64,000 bases of DNA from Bryobacterales bacterium (lineage in GTDB: Bacteria > Acidobacteriota > Terriglobia > Bryobacterales > UBA6623). Position numbers and translations under genes: made by a program. The notes beneath the pieces are model-generated. The model worked only from the letters and a program-made list of their open reading frames with translations. It was not told where the DNA came from and did not search any database. The stretch's first letter is position 1, and every line of letters begins with the position of its first letter. The DNA lies in contig OY729427.2 in the NCBI GenBank assembly GCA_963422375.2, forward strand, positions 576,001 to 640,000, read 5' to 3'. Of this stretch, positions 1-14,546 are shown piece by piece.

Positions 1-779
1 ACCTCGCTGACGTCCTCGAAGCGCCCGTCTCCCAAGTTCCGGTACAGGGTCACGCCGCCGAATGGCAGGCCTCTCGGCCCGCAATAGACCGGCATGCCCT
101 TCCACTCGCAGTTCGACGTCTCGCCCGGCGGGGGCGCCGTGGTCGGGTCGAACTGCTGGTACTGCGTAACGAGCAGGTCGAGCAGCCCGTCCCTGTCGTA
201 GTCGACGAACGTGCAACCCGAACTCCACTGGCCGGGAGCCCCGGCCACGCCGGCCTCGGTGGCGACCTCCCCGAAGCTCCCGTCGGCGCGGTTCCGATAC
301 AGCGCGTCCTCGCCCCAGTAGCCGACGAACATGTCGAGGCCGCCGTCATTGTCGTAGTCGCCCGCGCACACCGCGCTGCCCCAGCCGGAGCGCCCGACGC
401 CGCTCGCCACCGTGACGTCCTCGAACTTGCCGCCGCCCGCGTTGCGGTAGAGACGGCTGGTCGGGGCCTCGCCTGCGGGGAATCCTGCCAAGCTCGACCC
501 GTTGACCAGGAAAGCATCCAGCCTGGAATCGCCGTCATAGTCCAGAAACGCCACGCCGGAACCGTTGGCCTCGATGATGTAGCTCTTCTCCTCGCGCCCG
601 CCGTAGGTGAACTCGAGATCGAGACCCGCGTCCAAGGCGACGTCCGCGAACTTCGCCTTCCACGGCAGACCCGACAACTCCGGCGCCCTAACCGGCTGTG
701 CGTTCGAGCTGGCGACGCCTTGGCCGAGCAGCGCCGAGGGGACCAGCAGGCAGAGCCACAGCAGCGACGGGACCAGCAT
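1..779 (-). CDS. CRTAC1 / ASPIC-UnbV-type FG-GAP repeat protein, secreted; runs off the window edge
   Basis: Manual translation (absent from the ORF track): MLVPSLLWLCLLVPSALLGQG signal peptide, YIIEANGSGVAFLDYDGDSRLD, CAGDYDNDG, CEWKGMPVYCGPRGL, LYRNLGDGRFEDVSE. Confidence 0.85.
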   Translation of the reverse strand, partial: MLVPSLLWLCLLVPSALLGQGVASSNAQPVRAPELSGLPWKAKFADVALDAGLDLEFTYGGREEKSYIIEANGSGVAFLDYDGDSRLDAFLVNGSSLAGFPAGEAPTSRLYRNAGGGKFEDVTVASGVGRSGWGSAVCAGDYDNDGGLDMFVGYWGEDALYRNRADGSFGEVATEAGVAGAPGQWSSGCTFVDYDRDGLLDLLVTQYQQFDPTTAPPPGETSNCEWKGMPVYCGPRGLPFGGVTLYRNLGDGRFEDVSE

Positions 780-921: not shown

Positions 922-2778
922 CTAGCCGACCGCCTCGGAGTCGGGCACGCTGGGCGAATCGCTCAGGGACAACTTGCCTCGGAGGACGACCTCGAAAGCG
1001 TGCTCCGTGGCCGCCTGCCGCTTGATGCGCCTTGACCCGTAGTCCGTGCCCTGCGCGTTGATCCGGTTTCCGAGGCTCCAACCGATGTCGGGTGCGCCGA
1101 CGGCCATGCGGGTGCTTCCATGGGCCTGATGGGCCATCACCGCCGCGGGCCAGCTCGCGCTTGGCGCCGACTGGCCCAGCGGCGTCTCGACCGATTCGTA
1201 GAAGGTGTAGTCCGTAACGCCGCGCGCCGGGAAGCTCGCCTGATGCATCCTGCCCGCTCGCACGACCCGGTGGTGGGCCGACGGATCGGCCGCCTGCTCC
1301 CGCAGCTTCTGCGCGCCTCGGTCTGCCGGGAAGAGCACGTACTCGTAGCTGTGCCCGTCGGGCGGATGACGTGATCGAGGAAGGCCTGCGCGTAGGCCCC
1401 CTCGTTCGGCTCGTACTCTTCCGACATGCTCTTCCGGATGCCATAGGCCGCCGCGAGATCCGCGGTGCTGCCCGCCCGGAAGTAGCTGTTTCCGACGCTG
1501 TCGTCCATCGCCGCCGTCCCCCTCGCTATCACTCGGATCGAGACCTCGAGACCGGTCAGCGAGATCCCGCCTAGCCCAGTGGCGGCTGCGGGGCCCGCGG
1601 ACGGGTCTGGAAGAGAGTCGTGTGCGTCTCGTCGGTCGGCGTGCGTCCGTGGATGTCCGTACCCACGGCCAGCACCCGATCCCCCGCGAAGCGCTAGGTC
1701 TTGCGCGCCCGCAGGTCGGTAGGGGCCGTAATGGACACGGCTTCCCAGTCATGGACGAAAGACCCGTGGTCACCGAGAGAGACACAGCCCACGAGCGTCT
1801 AGGTGCTGTAGCTGCGCTGCGGATGCTTGAGCTCGATTCCCTGGGATCTCTGGCGCACTTTCGAGTTGCCAGGGAGCGCTCTTCGATCGGATAATGGCTG
1901 GCCGTCGGGCCCGGCTCCTGGCACCAATCCCAGCCGTTGTCGAGATCGTGCCCGGAATCCGGCGCGCGGACGGGCGAGCCCGCGCTGAAACCCTGCAGGA
2001 CACCGTACGGCCAGTTCTGGACGAAGCTGTGCTCGAGGGTTCGAATCTGGCCATCGAAGTCCCAGAAGTTCTGTCTGAGTCCCCGCGCCGAAACCAGCCA
2101 GTCCGCGGGCCGGAAGAAGGCGGCCGCGGCGGTGGGCGTGATCCAGACTCCCTGGGGCGTCGGGGCGGCGGCGATGCCCGGTCCCGGCAGGTCCGCGACC
2201 AGCCGGTAGATCCCGAGGCCGCGAATCGGAGCCTGCACCTGCGCTCGAACTAGGCGCGGCTGCCGGGCTCCGGCCAGAAATGGCGGCGGCCGAAGAAGCT
2301 CGAGGAAGCGTGCCCTCATTGCGTCGTCGTTCGATCCGTCCGGATGCGCCCGGAAGGGCATGGCCTTGGAAACGGTCATGGTGGGCCTGTCGCCGTGGTC
2401 GCCGCGCTGCCGCCCTCGCAGGGCGCTGGTGACCGAGTACTTCTGCACCATCACCCGGTCGGCTTCAAGCGCGAGCTTGACCGCGGCGACGTTTCCTCCC
2501 GTATGGCCGGCTAGCCCCTGCGCCACGTAGAGCAACTCGGCGCACGACTCGGGCGCGAAGGGGCCACAAGCGCCCATGCAAGCCGACGCGTAGTGGAAGG
2601 TCGTGCCGTCGGGCTGGATGGCGCCCTGCGCGCCGGGCTTGGCAGCGACGTTCTGAGCGATCGCGCGGGAGAGGGCCGCCGACATCCTTCCGCGCTCGCC
2701 GGCGCCCTCGACCAGCAGGAAGTAGGGTGAGAAGTAGTCTACGAGGAGCCGCAAGGCGTCCGCATTCGAGCGACCCAA
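922..2778 (-). pseudogene. Polysaccharide lyase family 8 (chondroitinase ABC-like) pseudogene
   Basis: PL8-like motifs spread over several frames: IQPDGTTFHY, NGWDWCQEPGPT, DLRARKT*RFAGDRVLAVGTDI (in-frame stop near 1695), DSVGNSYF, GAYAQAFLDH, HSYEYVLFP. Confidence 0.65.
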
Positions 2779-2962
2779 GCGCGGCGCGGCCGGAGGCCGC
2801 GATCAGGGATGCCCGCTGCGCGGGCTGCCGGAAACGGGGTGGCCAGCCTTGGCTGCCAGCGGGTCCGACTGTCGACCGCCCGATATCCAGAGCCGGGACC
2901 GTAGCACCATGCGGGGCCTTCGTCCGAGACTAGGCGCAAGCGTCGGATCGAAAGCGAGTAGA

Positions 2963-5900
2963 ATGCAATCTGTGAGGGTGGCCGGTACGGCCCTGGCGGT
3001 GGCATGTGCGCTGGCCGCATGGGGCCAGAATCCGGAACATCGCTTCTATCCGAGCTACCAGCTGGAGCGACCGGTTGATCGCGTCCTAGCCAAGGCTCAC
3101 CCTAGTGCCGGCGATTGGGTCGGCGAGCGGGACTTCGCCGCGGTCGACGCTCAGCTGAAGAGGATTGCCCGGTCGCTGCTGGCGGATCGGAATTCCTTCA
3201 AGCCCCTCGCAACCGAGACGGAGCGCTTCAGCGAACTAGCCTTGGTCGAGTTCAAGATCCTCTCCACCTCGAGGAACGAAAACCAGCCGCCACTGGTGCG
3301 TTCCGCCGTCCGCATCGAACTGGGAGGCACGGCTGACGATGGCGGGCTGCTGTCGCGCCTCGCCACGGCGCAACTGACCTGGGCGGCGGACGAGGACGGC
3401 CTGGCTCTCCGCGACTTCGCCGTCGGCGACATCCGTGGCGGGCGTTCGAGCGCCTTCGGATTCGCGGAGGTGACGGACCAGGTATTCGGCGGGATCGAGT
3501 CCTTCCGGGAGCAGCTGGTCGCGGGCGTCGATCACTGGCGGGATTCCATCGACGCGGCAGCCGGAGTCACCGTGTACGGCCACCAAGGCCTGTCCCTCGG
3601 GGACTTCGACGGCGACGGACTGGACGACCTCTACGTCAGCCAGCCCGCCGGGCTGCCGAACCGCCTCTACCGCAACAACGGCGACGGGACCTTCTCCGAC
3701 GCCACTCGCCGGGCGGGCCTTGACATTCTCGACGACACTTCCATGTCGCTCTTCGGCGACGTGGACAGCGACGGAGACCAAGACCTGATCCTCGTGGGGC
3801 CGACTCCGCTGCTCTTTCGCAACGCGGGCGATGGGTCGTTCTCGCTGGACGGCAGCGCTGGCTTCGATTTGCCGGAAGAGAAGGCCGCCATGTTCACCGG
3901 AGCGGCGCTGGCGGACTACGACCTAGACGGGGACTTGGATCTTTACGTCTGCGCTTACGATTTCTGGCAGCCCGGGGCCCAGTACGACGCTCCTACGCCC
4001 TACTACGACGCTGTTAACGGTCCGCCGAACCTGCTGTTCCAGAACGACGGACAGGGCAGGTTCGAAGAGGTTGCCGCCCTGGCGGGCCTGCAGCCGACCA
4101 ACAATCGCTTCAGCTTCGCCGCCGCCTGGGCAGACTACGACAGCGACGGCGATCCCGACCTGTACGTGGCGAACGACTTCGGGCGCAACAATCTCTACCG
4201 CAACAACGGAGACGGCACCTTCGTGGAAGCAGCCGGCGAGCTCGGCGTAGAGGATCTTGGCGCGGGCATGTCCGCAGCGTGGGGCGACTATGATAACGAT
4301 GGTGACCTAGACCTGTACACCGCCAACATGTGGTCGTCGGCCGGCCTTCGGATCACGACGAGCCCGCAGTTCGACGCGGTCGCGCCTAGTGCGGCGGTGC
4401 GCGGTGACTTCAAGCGCCACGCGCAGGGCAATTCCCTGTTCCGCAACGACGGAGCACTTGGCTTTCGCGACGTGAGCGACGAGGCCGGGGTGCGCACGGG
4501 GCGCTGGGCCTGGGCGTCCGATTTCGTAGATTTGGACGGGGACGGCCTGCTGGATCTCTTCGTCCAGAACGGCTACATCACCGGCGAGAGCCTAGACGAC
4601 CTTTGAAGCTTCTTCTGGCGGCAGGTCGTGTCGCAATCCCCTCTTGGAGCCGAGGGCTCCAAGAGCTACGCCGAGGGATGGCGAGCGATCAATATCCTGA
4701 TTCGCTCCGACGGGTCTTGGAGCGGCAGGGAGCGCAACCTGTGCTTCCGCAACCGTGGAGACGGCACGTTCGATGACGCGTCCTTCACCAGCGGCCTCGA
4801 TCTGGATGCCGACGGCCGGGCGTTCGTCCCCTTGGACATCGACTCGGACGGGGATCTCGACCTGATCCTCAAGAACCGCAACGGACGCCAGCTGAGGGCG
4901 TTCCGCAACGACATGCGCCCCGGTCACACAAGGCAATTCTCCGTGCGGCTCGAGGGTCGGCGCAGCAACCGCGATGGCGTTGGCGGGAGGGTTTGGATCA
5001 CCACCGATCGACGCACCATGATGCGCGAGATCGCCTCGGGAAGCGGCTACCTGTCGCAGAGATCCCGCCGGGCCCGATTCGCGCTGTCTGAGGCGGAAGC
5101 GGTGCGAGGCGTGCAAGTCCGCTGGCCTCTAGGAGACGTGCAGGAGATCGCGTCTCCGCCGCAAGACGGGCATTTCGCTCTGGTCGAGGGCGATACGGCA
5201 TTCCGGGCGGAGGCTTCTCCGCAGTCGGCAATCGCAGTGCCGGAGCCGGCCCCAAGCTCGGGGCGGCAGGCGAGCCCCGGGGCGTGGCTCCTCGATCCGC
5301 CGCCCGCTCCCGACTTCGAGCTGAGAACCCTTGGCACGGGCGCCTCGGCGCGCCTGTCGGACCACCGGGGAGGCCCGGTATTGCTCAACTTCTGGGCTTC
5401 GTGGTGCCCGCCGTGCCGGACGGAGCTGGCCAGCTTCCAAGACCGAATGGAGGACTTTCGACGGATGGGGGTCGAAGTCGTCGCCGTCTCCCTAGACCAG
5501 CCCGAAACCGCCGAGGCCGCGAAGGATCTGGTGTCGATGCTGGGACTGGACTACAGCGTGCTGCTGGCTGACCCGCAGACGGCCGCAGCTTACAGCGTGC
5601 TGAACGAGCGCCTCTTCGACCGCCGCAGGGCGCTTGCAGTCCCAACGACATTCCTCTTGAACTCCGACGGCCGGATCGTGAAGGCGTATCGCGGCGAAGT
5701 CGATGCCGACGCGGTCATCGCCGACATCCGGGCTGGCAGCGGCGCCGCGCTTCCATTCGCCGGACGCTGGGCCGCGTCCGCGCCGGGCCGGGACTACGAG
5801 GAACTCGCCGCCGCGTTTGCGGAGCGAGGCCTAGGCGTTGCGGCGAGGTCGATGTTCGCCGAGGCGCTCGCGACCGGCGCCCGCTCGCCGGTCCTCCTGA

Positions 5901-6637
5901 ACAATTTCGCCGGCGCCCTGATAACGGACGGCGAAAAGCTGGAAGCGGAGCGGCTCCTGCGCGAAGCGCTGGCCAAGGCACCGGGCCTGACGGACGCAAA
6001 GGTCAACCTAGCGACCCTGCTAGTCGAGCGCGGGGACAGGGCAGAGGCCGTGCGGCTTCTCGAAGCGGCGCTGAACGAGCAGCCGAAGGACGGCCAAGCG
6101 CTCTCCGTTCTCGGAGCCGTCCGGTTCTCGGAGGGCAGGCTGGAGTCCGCGGAGACACTCTTCCGTCGGGCCGTGCAGACTCGTCCGGAGGAGGAGCGGT
6201 TTCGCGCCAACCTCGGAGCGGCGCTCGCGTCCCAAGGACGCTTCGCCGAGGCACTGCAAGAGTACGAGGCGGCAAGGCAACTCGGCGCGGAGAGCGCGGC
6301 CCTGCATACCAACCTAGCCGTGCTCTACATGCAGACGGGCCAACCCGGGAAGGCTCGGGAATACTTCCTGAAAGCGGCCGAGACGGATCCGGACGATCCG
6401 AGCGCACACCTGAACCTCGCTCGTTTCCTCCTCCAAGCGGGCGATGCCAAGCACGCCAAGGATTCGATCCGTCACGCGATGAATCGAGATCCACGAAGCT
6501 CGGCAGCGTTCGCCCTCTTGGCCCAAGCTCTCGCCATGCAAGGGCTAGTCGACCAAGCGCGAGAGGCGGCGGAAGAGGCGCTCCGCCATGATCCGAACTC
6601 GGCTGAGGCTGCTAGGATCATCGATTCGCTCGAGTAG
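2963..6637 (+). CDS. Secreted FG-GAP + ASPIC/UnbV + TlpA-like thioredoxin (WCPPC) + TPR protein with one in-frame TGA at 4604-4606; candidate selenoprotein
   Basis: ORFs 2849..4606 and 4628..6637 share a frame; junction reads NGYITGESLDDL*SFFWRQVVSQSP...WSGRERN; signal peptide MQSVRVAGTALAVACALAAWG; many DxDxDGxxD repeats; LNFWASWCPPCR; C-terminal TPRs. Confidence 0.75.
4604..4634 (+). promoter_or_regulatory. Putative bacterial SECIS element
   Basis: TGA + 11-nt spacer AGCTTCTTCTG + hairpin GCGGCA-GGTCG-TGTCGC (4618-4634; 6-bp stem with one G-U pair, GG-led loop). Confidence 0.6.
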
Positions 6638-7500: not shown

Positions 7501-7847
7501 GCCCTTCAGTCGCGGTCTGAGGGATCCGGGATCGCAACTGCTCAATCTTCCGGGACGGCCGGAGGGGACCGAGGTACCAGCAGGCAGCGGCAGGCCGGAC
7601 CCGCCGGATCCGGAACAGATCCGCGACGGCATCAAGTCCAGCCCTTGTTGATTCCTGCCGGACTCGCTTGCCACTAGCGGACATCTACGGCCCACCAGAA
7701 CGATTCCTCCCGCGACGTTGCCCAGTGAGACGACCAGAGATCTTCGCCCCCAGTACAGGTGCCAGCACGTGACCCTTCGATCCAACGACCATCATGCCTC
7801 GAGCGGCCCGCTAACGGCCCGTGCCGCACGCCGTAGCATACGAGCAG

Positions 7848-8873
7848 ATGAAGAGCCGGCCCAAGGCCGGGGGCGAGGCGCAGGTCACGGCCGAGAAGGA
7901 GGCCGCGCCCCGGCGCGTGGACTACGACGGGGCCTGCAAGGTCCTCTTCTCCACGGCGCGGATGGTGGTCGACCTGGTGCGCGGCTACGCCAGGGAACTC
8001 GATCTCGACGAGATCGACTACACGACCTTGGAGCCCGCGAGCCCCTCCTACCTCGGCGCGGAGGCCGTCAAGCGCTACGGGGACCTGCTGTGGAAGGTGC
8101 AAACGAAGGGCGGGCGGCCGGTGTACGTCCTCGTGCTGCTGGAGTTCCAGTCGAGCGTGCAGGACTACATGGCGGTGCGCCTGATGACCTACGTGGGCCT
8201 GCTGTACGAGTCGCTGTGCCAGCGGCAGGGGCTCCCCCCCGCTGCCCATCCTGGTGCCGGTGGTGCTGTACTGCGGCCGGAACAGGTGGACGGCCGCGGA
8301 CAGCGTGCGCCCGCTGGTGCTAGCCGAGCCGGCGGCCCTGGCGGGCTTCGTGCCGGGATTCCGCTACATTCTGATCGACGAGCGACGCTGCGAGCTGCTG
8401 GGCCTGGAGCAGCGCAACCTGGTGGACGCGATGATTCGCTGCGGGCGGGCGGCGTCGGCGCCGGCGGCGTCGGAAGAGGTGCTGCGCCTGCAGGAGTGGC
8501 TGCGGGGGGACGCGAACGCCGCGCTGCGGCGGGCCTTCGTGACCTGGCTCGACATCGTGCTGATTCGGCCGCAGTTCCCCGAAGTGAAGCTGAAGGCCGG
8601 AGACGGCCTAGCGGAGGTGGCGAAAGTGCTGGGAAGCTCTATGACTTGGATCGAGCAGGCGGAGACGAAGGGCCGCGCGAAGGGCCGCGAGGAGGCGCTG
8701 AGGGACACGTTCCAGCGAGTGGTCCGAAGCCGGTTCGGGGAACCCTTCGCCGAGGCCGTGGCTTCCCTGAGCCGGCCGTTCGAGTCGGGCGAGGCCTTTT
8801 CGCCCGAGCCTTGGACCGGGCCTACGGCTGCCGAAGCGAAGGCGAGCTCCTGTCCAAGCTGGCCACCCTCTGA
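7848..8873 (+). pseudogene. Rpn family recombination-promoting nuclease / putative transposase (PD-(D/E)xK) with two compensating frameshifts
   Basis: YDGACKVLFS, RYGDLLWKV, LLEFQSSVQDYMAVRLMTYVGLLY; after the C7 run (8234-8240) continues in another frame as LVPVVLYCGRNRWTA...KGRAKGREEA...RFG; returns to the first frame near the T4 run (8797-8800). Confidence 0.8.
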
Positions 8874-10990: not shown

Positions 10991-11303
10991 CTCGCATGCC
11001 CGACTCGGAGCTTGCAGAATCCAGCGGGCAAGATGATCAACCGCGACCGGGCGGTGCCCGGCGACGATGCCTGGGAATTGGCTTCGATTCCGCACGCAAG
11101 AGGGGATCGGCACGGCAAGCTTCGCGACCCGTTGGCGAAGCAGCTGAAGTCCATGACGCTCCAGATTCACTTCCCCGTCCGGACCGCGTCATTCGCGACC
11201 CGCACTTGACACCAGCAGCGCTCACAATGTAGCGTTGCTCGGAAGGGGGTCGGGTGCCGTTGCCGTTGGGCCGACCCCGAACGGCATAGGAGGTACTCCA
11301 TTC

Positions 11304-14300
11304 ATGCGCATTCGCCTCTTCCTGGCACTTGTCGCAATCGTGTCGCTGCCGCTGGCGGCCCAACAGTCCGGGCTGACCGGCGCCGTGACGGACACAACCG
11401 GCGCGGTGGTCGTAGGCGCCGACGTCACCTTGGTCAATTCGGATACCGGGGTCTTGCTCTCGGCGCAGACGAACGAGTCCGGGGCCTTCAATTTCACCCT
11501 AGTGCAGCCCGGCACGTACGAGCTGAGCTGCGAATCGGTGGGCTTCAAGACCTACCGTCTGTCGGGTCTCGTGATGGAAACGGGCCTTACCAAGACTGTG
11601 ACTGCGCAGCTCGAGATCGGGGAAATCACCGAGACGATCGAGGTGACCGGCTCGGCCCCGCTGCTCGAGACAGAGAACACCACGGTGGGGCAGTTCATCG
11701 AGCGCACCACGGTCGCGCAAATGCCGGTCGGCAGCAGGCAGGCAGGCCAGCTAATCAAGCTGGCCGGAAATGTCACCTTCGCCACGTCCGGCGGCGGACT
11801 CTACGACCTCCCATTCTTCTCGATGGCCGGCGGCCGCTCGCGCAACCAAATGTGGCACCTCGACGGCGGCGTCGTTCAGAACATGGCCCTCGGAATCGCC
11901 CAGCTCAACCTCAACCCGCCGGTGGAGTCGCTGCGCGAGTTCAAGGTGGAGTCGAACAACTACGCAGCGGAGTTCGGACGGACGGGTAACGGCCTAATCA
12001 TCATGAGCACCCGCTCGGGGACCAACGACATGCACGGGGCCCTCTATCACAACTTCCGCAACGACAAGCTAGACGCCCGCACGTTCTTCGCCCCCAGCAT
12101 CGCGCCGCTCCGCTACAACATCTTCGGCGGGTCGGCGGGCGGCCCGATCAAGCGCGACCGGACCTTCTTCTTCGTCAACTACGAAGGCCAACGCCGCAGC
12201 GACGGGGTCACGATCGCGAATACCGATGTCCCCCACGCGATCGAGGCCCGCGGCGACTTCTCCAATCGCTCCAGCTTCGCGCTCAAGGATCCTCTCACGG
12301 GCGAGGCATTCGAGAACAACGTCATCCCTCCAAGCCGCATCGATCCCCTCGGCAGAGCCTTCGTCGGCCTGTACCCCGAGCCGAACGCCGCCAGCCCGCT
12401 GTCCTCCGCCCCACGCGACAACTTCGTCAAGAACGTCGCCAACCGCGGCGTGTCCGACTTCACCACCGTCAAGGTCGATCACAACTTCGGCCCGAGCGAC
12501 CGGATCTCCAGTCGCTTCAGCTACGTGTCCGCACCCGCCCAGCCCGAGCCGGTCTACCCGAACAAGTTCGCGGACTTCCGCGCCTCGGATCAGACCCGCT
12601 CGAATCTGGTGTCCACGTCGACCTGGAATCACAACTTCACGACCACGATGGTCAACGAGTTCCGCTACACCTTCGGCAACCGCACTTTCACCACCCGCGG
12701 ACTGGGAACCAACAGCGGCAAGAACGGCGAGCTCGGCGTGCCGAATGTCGACCCAGAGTTCTTCGCCACGGTGAATGTCACGGGCTACACGCGCTTGGGC
12801 GCGGGCAACCAAGAGCGCATTCAGAAGCCGATCCGGACCCACCAAGTCGTCAACAACACCTCATGGTTCAAGGGCGACCACAGCGTCAAGTGGGGCATCG
12901 AGTACCGCTACTCGCGCAACCAAGACGATTTCAACCAGTTCGCCGGCGGCAGCTTCAGCTTCAACAACCGCGTGACCGGTGACGGCATTGCGCAGCTTCT
13001 TCTCGGCTGGACTACGCGCGGACAGCTCGTCGACACGGACATCCTCAATACTCGCAGCGACTACTGGGGAGTGTACTTGCAGGACAGCTGGAAGTTGACG
13101 GACAGATTGACTCTCAACTTCGGCCTGCGCTGGGACCTGGACACGCCTCGCTGGGAACTCAGCAACAACCAGAGCGGGTTTGACCCGGGCCAAATCAACC
13201 CGGTATGCGATTGCTCGGGCGTGATGCTCTTTTCGGGCCGCAACGGCCGCGACAAGTACGCGCACGCCTTCGACGGCAATAACTTGGGACCGCGCGTCGG
13301 CCTCGCCTACAAGGCGACGGATTCGACCGTCGTCCGAGCCGGCTTCGGCGTGAACTACAACGGAGCGTACGCCCGCGCCGTCCCGTTCACGCAGTTCTGG
13401 ACGTTTTCCCGCACTCTGGACATCAACTCACCCGACGGCGGGTTCACGCCGGCCTTCATGCTCAGCGACGGCCTTCCCGCCGTCGATCCGTTCACCGAGG
13501 AGGACAGGGTCGGCACGTTCGGGGCTACGATGAGCGGGCGCCGCACCGTCTCGCCGGATTTCATCCAGCAGAACCAGCAGAACGGCTACTCGCAGCAGTG
13601 GAACCTGACACTGCAGAAGCAACTGCCCAATAGCGTGTTGCTCGAGGCGCAGTACCAAGCAAACGTCGGTCACAGCCTCGGAGGCCCGAACTACAACTAC
13701 AACATGATCCCTCTCGTCGTCGGCCGGGGGCCCGAGCGGCAGAGCCAGAACCTGCGTCTCTTCCCGCACTACAACAGCGTCGTCATCGAGAGCCCGGACT
13801 GGGGCAATTCGACCTACCATTCGCTCAACCTGAAAGCCGAGAAGCGCTTCTCCAGTGGTCTCAGCTACCTCTTCAACTACACGTGGTCCAAGTTCATCGA
13901 CGACGTAGAGTCGGCCAACGAGCTCGGCGGCGAGCAGAACAACGGCTACACGCACTACCAGCTGCGCCATCTGGACAAGGCCCTGTCGGGCAACGACATC
14001 CGGCACCGGCTCGTAGCGAGCGGGGTCTACGAGCTGCCCGTCGGCCGCAACAAGCCGCTTGCGATCGAAAATGCCGCGCTGGACGCGCTGATCGGAGGCT
14101 GGAGCCTCGGGGTAATCGCCGAGTTCCGCAGCGGCTCGCCCTTCGGAATCATTGAGCAGACCAACCGGAGCAACACGTTCAGCCACGGGCAGCGCCCGAA
14201 CGTGCTCGGCGACCCGGTCCTCGCCGGCGGCCGATCGAAGTCTGATCGATTGGTGCGGTGGTTCGACACGTCGAAATTCGAGGCTCCCGGAGCCGGCGCA

Positions 14301-14546
14301 TTCGGCAACTCGCCGCGCAACATCTGCTGCGGGCCGGGCTTCGCAGTCGTCGACGTCTCGATCCAGAAGCGGTTCCGGCTGTCGGAAAAGGGGCGACTGG
14401 AGTTCCGCGCGGACTTCTTCAACTTCACGAATCACGCCAATTTCGGAATCCCGGAACGCCGTCGCGGCAATTCCGGTTTCGGCAGGATTCGAGGCACCAT
14501 CGGCACGGGACGGCAGGCGCAGCTCGGTCTCCGCATCGAGTTCTAG
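11304..14546 (+). CDS. TonB-dependent receptor (Oar-like, carboxypeptidase-regulatory N-domain)
   Basis: AGGAGGT RBS upstream, signal peptide, GAVTDTTGAVVVGADVT, EFKVESNNYAAEFGR, STRSGTN, C-terminal QLGLRIEF. Confidence 0.92.
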   Translation: MRIRLFLALVAIVSLPLAAQQSGLTGAVTDTTGAVVVGADVTLVNSDTGVLLSAQTNESGAFNFTLVQPGTYELSCESVGFKTYRLSGLVMETGLTKTVTAQLEIGEITETIEVTGSAPLLETENTTVGQFIERTTVAQMPVGSRQAGQLIKLAGNVTFATSGGGLYDLPFFSMAGGRSRNQMWHLDGGVVQNMALGIAQLNLNPPVESLREFKVESNNYAAEFGRTGNGLIIMSTRSGTNDMHGALYHNFRNDKLDARTFFAPSIAPLRYNIFGGSAGGPIKRDRTFFFVNYEGQRRSDGVTIANTDVPHAIEARGDFSNRSSFALKDPLTGEAFENNVIPPSRIDPLGRAFVGLYPEPNAASPLSSAPRDNFVKNVANRGVSDFTTVKVDHNFGPSDRISSRFSYVSAPAQPEPVYPNKFADFRASDQTRSNLVSTSTWNHNFTTTMVNEFRYTFGNRTFTTRGLGTNSGKNGELGVPNVDPEFFATVNVTGYTRLGAGNQERIQKPIRTHQVVNNTSWFKGDHSVKWGIEYRYSRNQDDFNQFAGGSFSFNNRVTGDGIAQLLLGWTTRGQLVDTDILNTRSDYWGVYLQDSWKLTDRLTLNFGLRWDLDTPRWELSNNQSGFDPGQINPVCDCSGVMLFSGRNGRDKYAHAFDGNNLGPRVGLAYKATDSTVVRAGFGVNYNGAYARAVPFTQFWTFSRTLDINSPDGGFTPAFMLSDGLPAVDPFTEEDRVGTFGATMSGRRTVSPDFIQQNQQNGYSQQWNLTLQKQLPNSVLLEAQYQANVGHSLGGPNYNYNMIPLVVGRGPERQSQNLRLFPHYNSVVIESPDWGNSTYHSLNLKAEKRFSSGLSYLFNYTWSKFIDDVESANELGGEQNNGYTHYQLRHLDKALSGNDIRHRLVASGVYELPVGRNKPLAIENAALDALIGGWSLGVIAEFRSGSPFGIIEQTNRSNTFSHGQRPNVLGDPVLAGGRSKSDRLVRWFDTSKFEAPGAGAFGNSPRNICCGPGFAVVDVSIQKRFRLSEKGRLEFRADFFNFTNHANFGIPERRRGNSGFGRIRGTIGTGRQAQLGLRIEF

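Follow-up and report, generated by a model that had tools for sequence, protein, structure and literature searches.

Does the in-frame TGA at positions 4604-4606 end a gene, or is it read as selenocysteine (Sec) within one large protein? The question is raised by 64,000 nucleotides (nt) of a Bryobacterales bacterium, positions 576,001 to 640,000 of the forward strand of contig OY729427.2 (assembly GCA_963422375.2), referred to here as the window. Two open reading frames (ORFs), at 2849-4606 (585 amino acids) and 4628-6637 (669 amino acids), lie there in one common frame, and the sole stop that intervenes is this TGA. Its context is GESLDDL*SFFWRQVVSQ (the asterisk marks the stop), flanked by the motifs NGYI and WSGRERN. 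On these points the sequence bears out the original prediction, as it does for the claim that the large gene, 2963-6637, is otherwise free of lesions: the next stop is the TAG ending at 6637, and 677 open, homologous codons lie 3' of the TGA. The likely start of the gene is ATG 2963-2965, so that the gene has 1,224 codons, the TGA being number 548. Uninterrupted full-length homologues of 1,200-1,320 amino acids exist and have an identical domain order. The prediction had read the UGA as Sec and the gene as encoding one protein of about 1224 amino acids. We come to the same reading and assign it a probability of about 0.9: the TGA would be read as Sec, giving one exported protein of about 1,224 residues. 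This reading follows from the conservation of the recoded TGA, from a constrained hairpin behind it and from the Sec machinery of the genome. To our knowledge, 1,224 residues would be unusually large for a bacterial selenoprotein, although this is an impression.

To trace the stop, 60 relatives and the organism's own genome (G000) were analyzed by a stop-tolerant search. One in-frame TGA was found in the orthologue of 29 of the 31 genomes of the genus (G000 included) and of one other genus, and inspection of the nucleotides placed it at exactly the same column in all 30 orthologue loci. Downstream of it, the orthologues continue open and homologous for another 636-684 codons. The second intact paralogue of G000 shares this TGA, as do one broken paralogue and 20 more loci of two paralogue clades, bringing the closer TGA loci to 52. 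The codon tabulation proposed with the prediction thus returned TGA in every orthologue and in two paralogue clades, never TAA or TAG, and a Cys codon (TGC) in 14 paralogue loci. The true terminators of the 30 orthologues are mixed (13 TGA, 14 TAG, 3 TAA). Stops are therefore interchangeable at the end of the gene but not at the internal site. Of 401 genomes sampled evenly across the phylum, 42 contain the family and 22 of those, G000 counted, the TGA form (these tallies, and no other result, include two unpublished genomes, G109 with the TGA and G212 without). Twelve distant TGA loci from other families of the phylum were read, and the TGA stands at the identical column in 12/12. The 52 closer and 12 distant loci form the TGA set of 64, aligned as A3 (62 distinct rows).

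A sequencing error had been considered from the start. Logan contigs covering 4400-4800 were compared for four runs from three studies (X1, X3, X4 and X6; runs X7-X19 had about 1/20 of the sampled words). All four keep the TGA. X1, X3 and X4 are identical to the record at the TGA, and X6 differs at 4573 and 4629. The TGA at 4604-4606 is neither a lesion nor an error.

The sequence GCGGCAGGUCGUGUCGC, at 4618-4634, lies exactly 11 nt 3' of the TGA and spans 17 nt, as predicted. It folds into a hairpin with a 6-bp stem and a 5-nt loop, GGUCG. The 17-nt core has a folding energy of -7.3 kcal/mol (z = -3.1, equalled by 1/200 shuffles), and the UGA with 34 nt one of -9.9 kcal/mol. The spacer measures 11 nt in 64/64 loci, A3 being ungapped. 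Full pairing of the stem was observed in 63/64 TGA loci versus 4/28 non-TGA loci (locus L024, whose true site is TGA, was counted in A3 and excluded from the non-TGA set). Of the cells of the proposed structure in A3, 98.8% are paired; when the 3' partners were slid, the value was 17-66%. Published rules for the bacterial selenocysteine insertion sequence (bSECIS), as given in PMC13188914, comprise an apical loop of 3-9 nt, an upper stem of 4-16 bp, a minimum free energy of -7.5 kcal/mol or lower, a G among the first two loop positions and a UGA-to-loop distance of 16-37 nt. The hairpin satisfies the rules for loop (5 nt), stem (6 bp), loop G and spacing (17 nt).

Changes within the stem are matched across it. 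In A3, pair 27:37 is GU in 45 rows, AU in 7, GC in 5, CG in 4 and another combination in 1; pair 29:35 is AU in 61 and GC in 1; the loop-closing pair 30:33 is GC in 50, AU in 9 and other in 3. Two-sided changes occur in 3/7 pairs, a count matched by 1/500 shuffles, and the covariation score of the hairpin was reached by 0/500. The change at 29:35 arises from two amino-acid substitutions, Q to R and V to A. At 30:33 the step from GC to AU corresponds to CAG GTC becoming CAA GTT, both synonymous. Within the hairpin, the 52 closer loci show frozen synonymous sites: Arg+5 is CGG in 47 and CGA in 5, Val+8 is GTG in 52/52 and Ser+9 is TCG in 49/49. Ser+11, directly outside the hairpin, is TCG in 19, TCC in 12, TCA in 12, TCT in 7 and AGC in 1, and for Arg+5 the 20 non-TGA relatives use six codons. 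The co-variation that had been proposed as a check is thus present, and comparison of the loci shows the hairpin to be constrained as RNA.

Several loci depart from this pattern. In L095 (G389:C67:12069-12476), the sole TGA locus with a degraded hairpin (4/6 pairs, GG in the loop instead of GU), the protein diverges straight after SFFWRQ and the CxxC is intact (WCPPC, L138); this copy may be decaying. In L052-L055, three Cys forms and one Met form, the hairpin is fully paired with C:G at pair 27:37, which looks like a fossil SECIS in genes lacking the TGA or a by-product of W-R-Q-V-V-A codons. A second hairpin downstream, at 4641-4665 (CUCUUGGAGCC GAG GGCUCCAAGAG), was considered as a SECIS and rejected. 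It is stable (-19.4 kcal/mol) and starts 34 nt 3' of the TGA, so that its loop would sit about 48 nt from the UGA. It pairs 11/11 in G000 only, the other 29 orthologue loci pairing 4-9 of 11, and may be a chance or lineage feature. The fold of the whole region 4598-4680 was uninformative (z = -1.81).

Using a degenerate 30-nt pattern of TGA, spacer and hairpin, contigs of one genome per species were scanned. At least 119 loci matched, against about 0.0005 expected by chance (a rough estimate). Among the matches listed are at least 46 Planctomycetota, at least 38 Acidobacteriota (14 of them titled Bryobacterales), at least 33 Verrucomicrobiota and at least one Latescibacterota. The Logan contigs of X1, X3 and X4 show a trace of this repetition. 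Their summed depth is about 10-fold higher at 4596-4637, the contigs break within this 40-nt stretch, and loose contig ends there continue into what look like paralogue sequences; the module of TGA and hairpin is near-identical between copies and collapses in assembly graphs.

The genes proposed as a check on Sec decoding are present in G000. Matches to SelA (418 bits), SelB (345.6 bits, cut-off 242) and SelD (299.7 bits, cut-off 125) each exceed the curated cut-off, and a tRNA-Sec with anticodon TCA was identified; selB lies at C2:1355356-1357227 and the tRNA-Sec gene at C2:1571727-1571821. Among the relatives, SelA was found in 33/33 TGA-bearing genomes. In the phylum sample it was found in 20/20 TGA-bearing genomes versus 14/19 genomes with non-TGA forms only. 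Overall, SelA is encoded in 53/53 TGA-bearing genomes checked, and the TGA form occurs in 0/6 family-bearing genomes that lack SelA; since SelA is present in 54/61 relatives, this co-occurrence is a test of modest power.

A SECIS of a known family is available in the same genome. On C2 of G000, with its TGA at 2609581 (minus strand), locus L113 encodes a molybdopterin oxidoreductase with the motif CNRT-U-HAPS; UHxP is listed as the Sec motif of FdhA in PMC13188914. Its SECIS, GUCGCC-GGUCU-GGCGGC, lies 12 nt after the UGA and has a 6-bp stem and a 5-nt loop, GGUCU. The architecture is near-identical to that of the hairpin at 4618-4634, and the same SelB would serve both. By this likeness, the hairpin is of a kind that SelB of this organism must already read. 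The two genes differ in their standing, the FdhA type being a known family and the propeller family described here an uncatalogued one. The upstream part of the L113 frame contains several stops. The comparison with Escherichia coli fdhF made in the prediction was confirmed on the K-12 record, in which UGA codon 140 is followed by 11 nt and then by GGUUGCAGGUCUGCACC, containing GCAGGUC. Both genes share the UGA, the 11-nt spacer, a 17-nt hairpin with GCAGGUC, and GGUC in the loop. In contrast to fdhF, the stem here is an unbroken 6 bp with no bulged U and the loop starts at +17 instead of +18; the host proteins are unrelated, and the hairpin here encodes the conserved W-R-Q-V-V-S. By the same program that gave -7.3 kcal/mol for the core, the E. 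coli 17-mer has -4.2 kcal/mol. On comparative grounds, the UGA is recoded.

Insertion would proceed in the manner usual for bacteria. SelB with Sec-tRNA(Sec) would bind the hairpin, and with a GGUC-type loop 17 nt behind the UGA the ribosome would insert Sec rather than terminate. The predicted product comprises, in this order, a signal peptide, an N-terminal alpha/beta domain, a CRTAC1-like FG-GAP propeller with ASPIC/UnbV, a ResA/TlpA-like thioredoxin domain (WCPPC) and tetratricopeptide repeats (TPRs). The N-terminus resembles a signal peptide, and the product is presumably exported; a conserved lipobox Cys is absent from the orthologue N-termini compared. The coordinates of all features are collected in Table 1. 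An NCBIfam scan of the protein matched TPR and thioredoxin models alone, every one below cut-off.

To gain insight into the environment of the Sec site, residues 40-960 of the read-through translation were modelled with AlphaFold2, using an 89-row alignment (13 recoded references and 75 database proteins). The model reached a predicted local distance difference test (pLDDT) score of 90.9 and a predicted template modelling (pTM) score of 0.90. It places Sec as the first residue of helix 547-557 (numbering of the modelled fragment), within a helix-loop-helix insert that separates two strands of the same blade. In the numbering of the read-through translation, Sec is residue 586, the CxxC cysteines are residues 853 and 856, and the Cys at +46 is residue 632. 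The best Foldseek match was murine CRTAC1 (9etn_A, E 1.3e-26, TMt 0.72 over 636 columns). Like the protein here, CRTAC1 (PDB 9etn) combines FG-GAP repeats with a UnbV_ASPIC domain. It is only 19% identical, however, is no selenoprotein and has no fused thioredoxin or TPR part. For the thioredoxin domain, Foldseek returned ResA, TlpA and DsbE with TMt 0.80-0.87 and about 30% identity. The fold and a WCxPC-type motif are shared with these extracytoplasmic thiol-disulfide reductases, although here they belong to one domain of a 1,224-residue protein, and the NCBIfam models for ResA (75 versus 170 bits) and TlpA (58 versus 230 bits) stay below their cut-offs. Exported thioredoxin-fold proteins that use Sec are listed in PMC13188914, namely TlpA (UGC), Redoxin (UxxC) and NF041054 (WAxxUGC). 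In those, Sec is inside the CxxC-type motif, whereas WCPPC here is all-Cys and the predicted Sec lies 267 residues upstream in another domain, outside the thioredoxin fold. The NF041054 model gives 46 bits on the protein, against a cut-off of 300.

What would Sec do at this position? At the N-terminus of a helix in a propeller-blade insert, it would act as an extracytoplasmic redox centre, kept reduced or recycled by the fused TlpA-like CxxC domain, possibly via a third Cys at +46 or -30. That domain would in turn be fed electrons by a membrane system of the DsbD/CcdA type. Neisseria PilB/MsrAB has a periplasmic catalytic domain that is recycled by a fused TlpA-like thioredoxin domain. It may serve as an analogy for the proposed relay, its catalytic Msr domain being unrelated to the propeller and using Cys, not Sec.

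The distribution of the CxxC motif within the family is consistent with such a relay. CxxC (as WCxPC) was found in 51 of the 52 closer Sec loci, the exception being the broken paralogue L036, and in all 12 distant ones. It is retained in 10/75 database homologues that have S, N, A, E, G or L at the site and a scorable tail, in 0/20 of the Cys clade and its neighbours, and in 2/8 distant non-TGA loci. The totals are 63/64 Sec forms versus 12/103 non-Sec forms, counted over related sequences. In most non-Sec forms the thioredoxin domain is decayed, with SxxC, AxxS or similar motifs. An extra Cys is also found with Sec: 37 of the closer loci have it at +46 and 12 at -30, never both (49/52), and 0/20 non-TGA loci have either. 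Together, the co-occurrence of Sec and CxxC suggests a redox relay.

The history of the family was followed on a FastTree phylogeny of 150 rows, rooted on three distant FG-GAP/ASPIC proteins (one long-branch warning was given). Sec forms stand in at least four places on the tree; four label changes are needed, at least three of them forced by well-supported branches, and such counts do not discriminate gain from loss. Non-Sec forms are nested among Sec forms, and the Cys clade is a single group (support 100). CxxC changes along with Sec in 2.3 of 3 contrasts on average and never in the opposite direction. Still, non-Sec forms have decayed CxxC domains and partial hairpins, which read more easily as relics. 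If they are, Sec and CxxC would have been ancestral and lost repeatedly, and the Cys pair of the Cys clade would be a later invention and not a swap of Sec for Cys.

We give roughly even odds to Sec being a redox (or possibly metal-binding) centre served by the fused TlpA-like domain. The wider proposal is more tentative, and we hold it at somewhat less than even: a new class of extracytoplasmic selenoenzyme with a catalytic Sec on a CRTAC1-like propeller, recycled by CxxC, with ancestral Sec and CxxC and a dual-coded SECIS. If true, Sec and CxxC would be ancestral to a large family in at least four phyla and would have disappeared jointly on many occasions. Dual coding of the SECIS with W-R-Q-V-V-S would account for the near-identity of a 30-nt stretch of DNA among phyla. 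The link between Sec and CxxC would also provide a concrete hypothesis for the role of bacterial CRTAC1-like proteins.

The alternative that survives best concerns this chemistry and is a variant of it, leaving the recoding unaffected. Sec would be inserted to coordinate a thiophilic metal such as Cu or Hg, with the TlpA-like domain keeping the site reduced for loading. Complexes of TlpA with a copper chaperone and with cytochrome oxidase subunit II (4txo, 4txv) are among the best structural matches of the thioredoxin domain, Sec and one nearby Cys would form a two-ligand site, and several metal-binding selenoproteins are among the entries of PMC13188914. However, neither Pfam nor NCBIfam finds a metal-binding motif or domain on the protein. 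Present data do not separate metal binding from redox catalysis, and we regard a ligand role as unlikely.

Read-through independent of SelB is very improbable. A near-cognate tRNA (Trp, Cys or Arg) or a leaky context would then decode the UGA, the hairpin merely slowing the ribosome. Comparative data that show recoding cannot name the inserted residue, and most homologues tolerate many residues at the site. Against this, the hairpin is of the SelB type in its GGUC loop and its spacing, like those of the FdhA gene of G000 and E. coli fdhF, and the TGA forms occur only in SelA genomes (53/53). If any residue sufficed, sense codons should also have taken the place of the TGA many times, yet at least four phyla have retained it.

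Still less credible is a conserved split gene, in which two polypeptides would be made, the first ending at the TGA and the second starting anew at the in-frame GTG 4628 within the hairpin. Gene callers do give these halves in many genomes (about 540 and 669-671 amino acids), and 63/64 TGA loci have a potential start codon (GTG, TTG or ATG) at +8. In the remaining locus, L103, the +8 codon is GCG and the pairing is preserved by a compensating change, which indicates that the constraint is on the stem and not on a start codon. The cut would fall inside a propeller blade of what is modelled confidently as a single fold, and would leave the second half with no signal peptide despite its extracytoplasmic-type ResA/TlpA domain. 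It also leaves unexplained why the stop is only ever TGA, why TGA forms occur only with SelA and why 76 homologues are uninterrupted. A recent nonsense mutation or a sequencing or assembly error can be dismissed. A single base change would turn TCA (Ser) or GGA (Gly) into TGA, homologues do have Ser or Gly at this column, and a broken paralogue exists in the genome (C1:943352-946260). However, many species share the TGA (64 loci), contigs of four runs from three studies retain it, and the rest of the gene is intact.

Several observations nevertheless weigh against the reading of the UGA as Sec or against the role proposed for it. The support for selenium in the protein is comparative. The core energy of the hairpin falls 0.2 short of the bSECIS limit, and in the strain variant X6 (third study, same species label) the change T4629C opens the top A-U pair; Val+8 becomes Ala there and a 5-bp stem with a 7-nt loop is left, with the TGA retained. 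The hairpin also coincides with the conserved protein motif W-R-Q-V-V-S. The prediction had warned that the protein could partly dictate it, and this caveat holds in part: the W-R-Q-V-V-S codons form the hairpin and, besides the four fully paired non-TGA loci, four more of the 28 pair at 5/6 positions. At the site itself, the 76 full-length database homologues have S (24), N (23), A (16), E (8), G (4) or L (1) and never Cys; such scarcity of Sec or Cys is unusual, being atypical of a catalytic Sec. The 14 loci with Cys (TGC) belong to a paralogous clade that does not appear to form a classical Sec/Cys pair with the Sec forms. A second Cys is present at +27 (GWNCLNQ) in 14/14 of them, where six non-Cys neighbours have Ala, and the two cysteines look like a disulfide. 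CxxC is absent from the Cys clade (0/14), which is nested among non-Cys forms on the tree, and Pfam found no redoxin match in the Cys-form paralogue L035. The Sec-CxxC association comes down to three well-supported contrasts (four on all branches), with a median p of 0.5, so that a sign test cannot reach significance. In the structure model, the linker ahead of the thioredoxin domain has a pLDDT of 55-57.

The family is new to selenoprotein catalogues, and its recoding mechanism is an ordinary bacterial one. FG-GAP, ASPIC and propeller entries are absent from Table 1 of the 2026 inventory of 119 selenoprotein families (PMC13188914). These terms occur neither in the main text and one supplement of BSepDB (PMC13326102) nor in the main text of deep-Sep (PMC12013277). 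NCBIfam selenoprotein models gave no match above cut-off on the protein. A candidate with the same domain description is listed in Table S9 of Kim et al. 2016 (PMC4807772); the main-text passages of that paper do not include the family. The rows of the table are adjacent gene-identifier pairs split by a stop, the nearest match having Gly at the site, and of the two, one has a 'yes' for SECIS and the other a 'no'. Given the description and the Planctomycetota loci (at least 46) with the module of TGA and hairpin, these candidates probably belong to the same family. A literature search for selenoproteins with FG-GAP, ASPIC, UnbV, VCBS or CRTAC1 found nothing else relevant. The statement that no selenoprotein of this architecture has been characterised therefore holds, with a candidate listing in that supplementary table alone.

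Close relatives are present in the protein collection solely as unnamed halves of about 531-569 and 669-671 amino acids, and its full-length entries are non-TGA forms (49-54% identity). Owing to these split halves, selenium use is undercounted in these soil and marine groups, and the architecture of the protein is misread. Three more copies of the family are encoded in G000. No thiol-redox or selenium gene is adjacent among the neighbours of the large gene; the surrounding genes and the further copies are included in Table 1.

Table 1. Features of the large gene, its neighbours in the window and further family copies in G000 (coordinates with a contig name refer to that contig)
Feature	Coordinates	Strand	Basis or remark
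Whole gene with the TGA read through, 1,224 codons and TAG stop	2963..6637	+	Read as a putative exported selenoprotein
Signal-peptide-like N-terminus (MQSVRVAGTALAVACALAAWG followed by Q)	2963..3025	+	By eye from the sequence and orthologue N-termini
CRTAC1-like FG-GAP beta-propeller with helix-loop-helix insert bearing the predicted Sec	3590..4915	+	Pfam FG-GAP_3 (PF13517), 2.8e-43, 146.8 bits, above cut-off, 6 stretches
In-frame TGA, predicted Sec, residue 548 of the 1,224-residue protein	4604..4606	+	TGA at this column in 64/64 related TGA loci
11-nt spacer AGCUUCUUCUG, UGA to hairpin	4607..4617	+	Constant length in 64 loci
Putative SECIS core hairpin GCGGCA-GGUCG-UGUCGC, encodes (W)RQVVS	4618..4634	+	6-bp stem, loop starts 17 nt after UGA
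Cys at +46 from Sec (ERNLCF), candidate partner thiol	4742..4744	+	Cys here or at -30 in 49/52 Sec loci
UnbV_ASPIC domain	4976..5164	+	Pfam PF07593, 3.5e-13, 49.7 bits, above cut-off
ResA/TlpA-like thioredoxin-fold domain	5303..5704	+	Pfam AhpC-TSA (PF00578) 6.2e-25, Redoxin (PF08534) 1.7e-19, above cut-off
CPPC active-site motif (within WCPPC), all-Cys	5405..5416	+	
C-terminal TPR array	5882..6613	+	Pfam TPR families; NCBIfam TPR models all below cut-off
FG-GAP protein, extends past window start	3-779	-	
Weak polysaccharide-lyase-like ORF	922-2778	-	
YhgA-like transposase ORF	7821-8873	+	
TonB-dependent-receptor-like outer-membrane protein	11235-14546	+	CarboxypepD_reg and 838-position beta-barrel
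Family copy L034	C2:3297294-3300659		Second intact predicted Sec form, 42% identity, WCAPC, Cys at -30
Family copy L036/L037	C1:943352-946260		Broken copy, 3 TGA and 1 TAG
Family copy L035	C2:1411714-1414788		Cys form, second Cys at +27, thioredoxin remnant without CxxC

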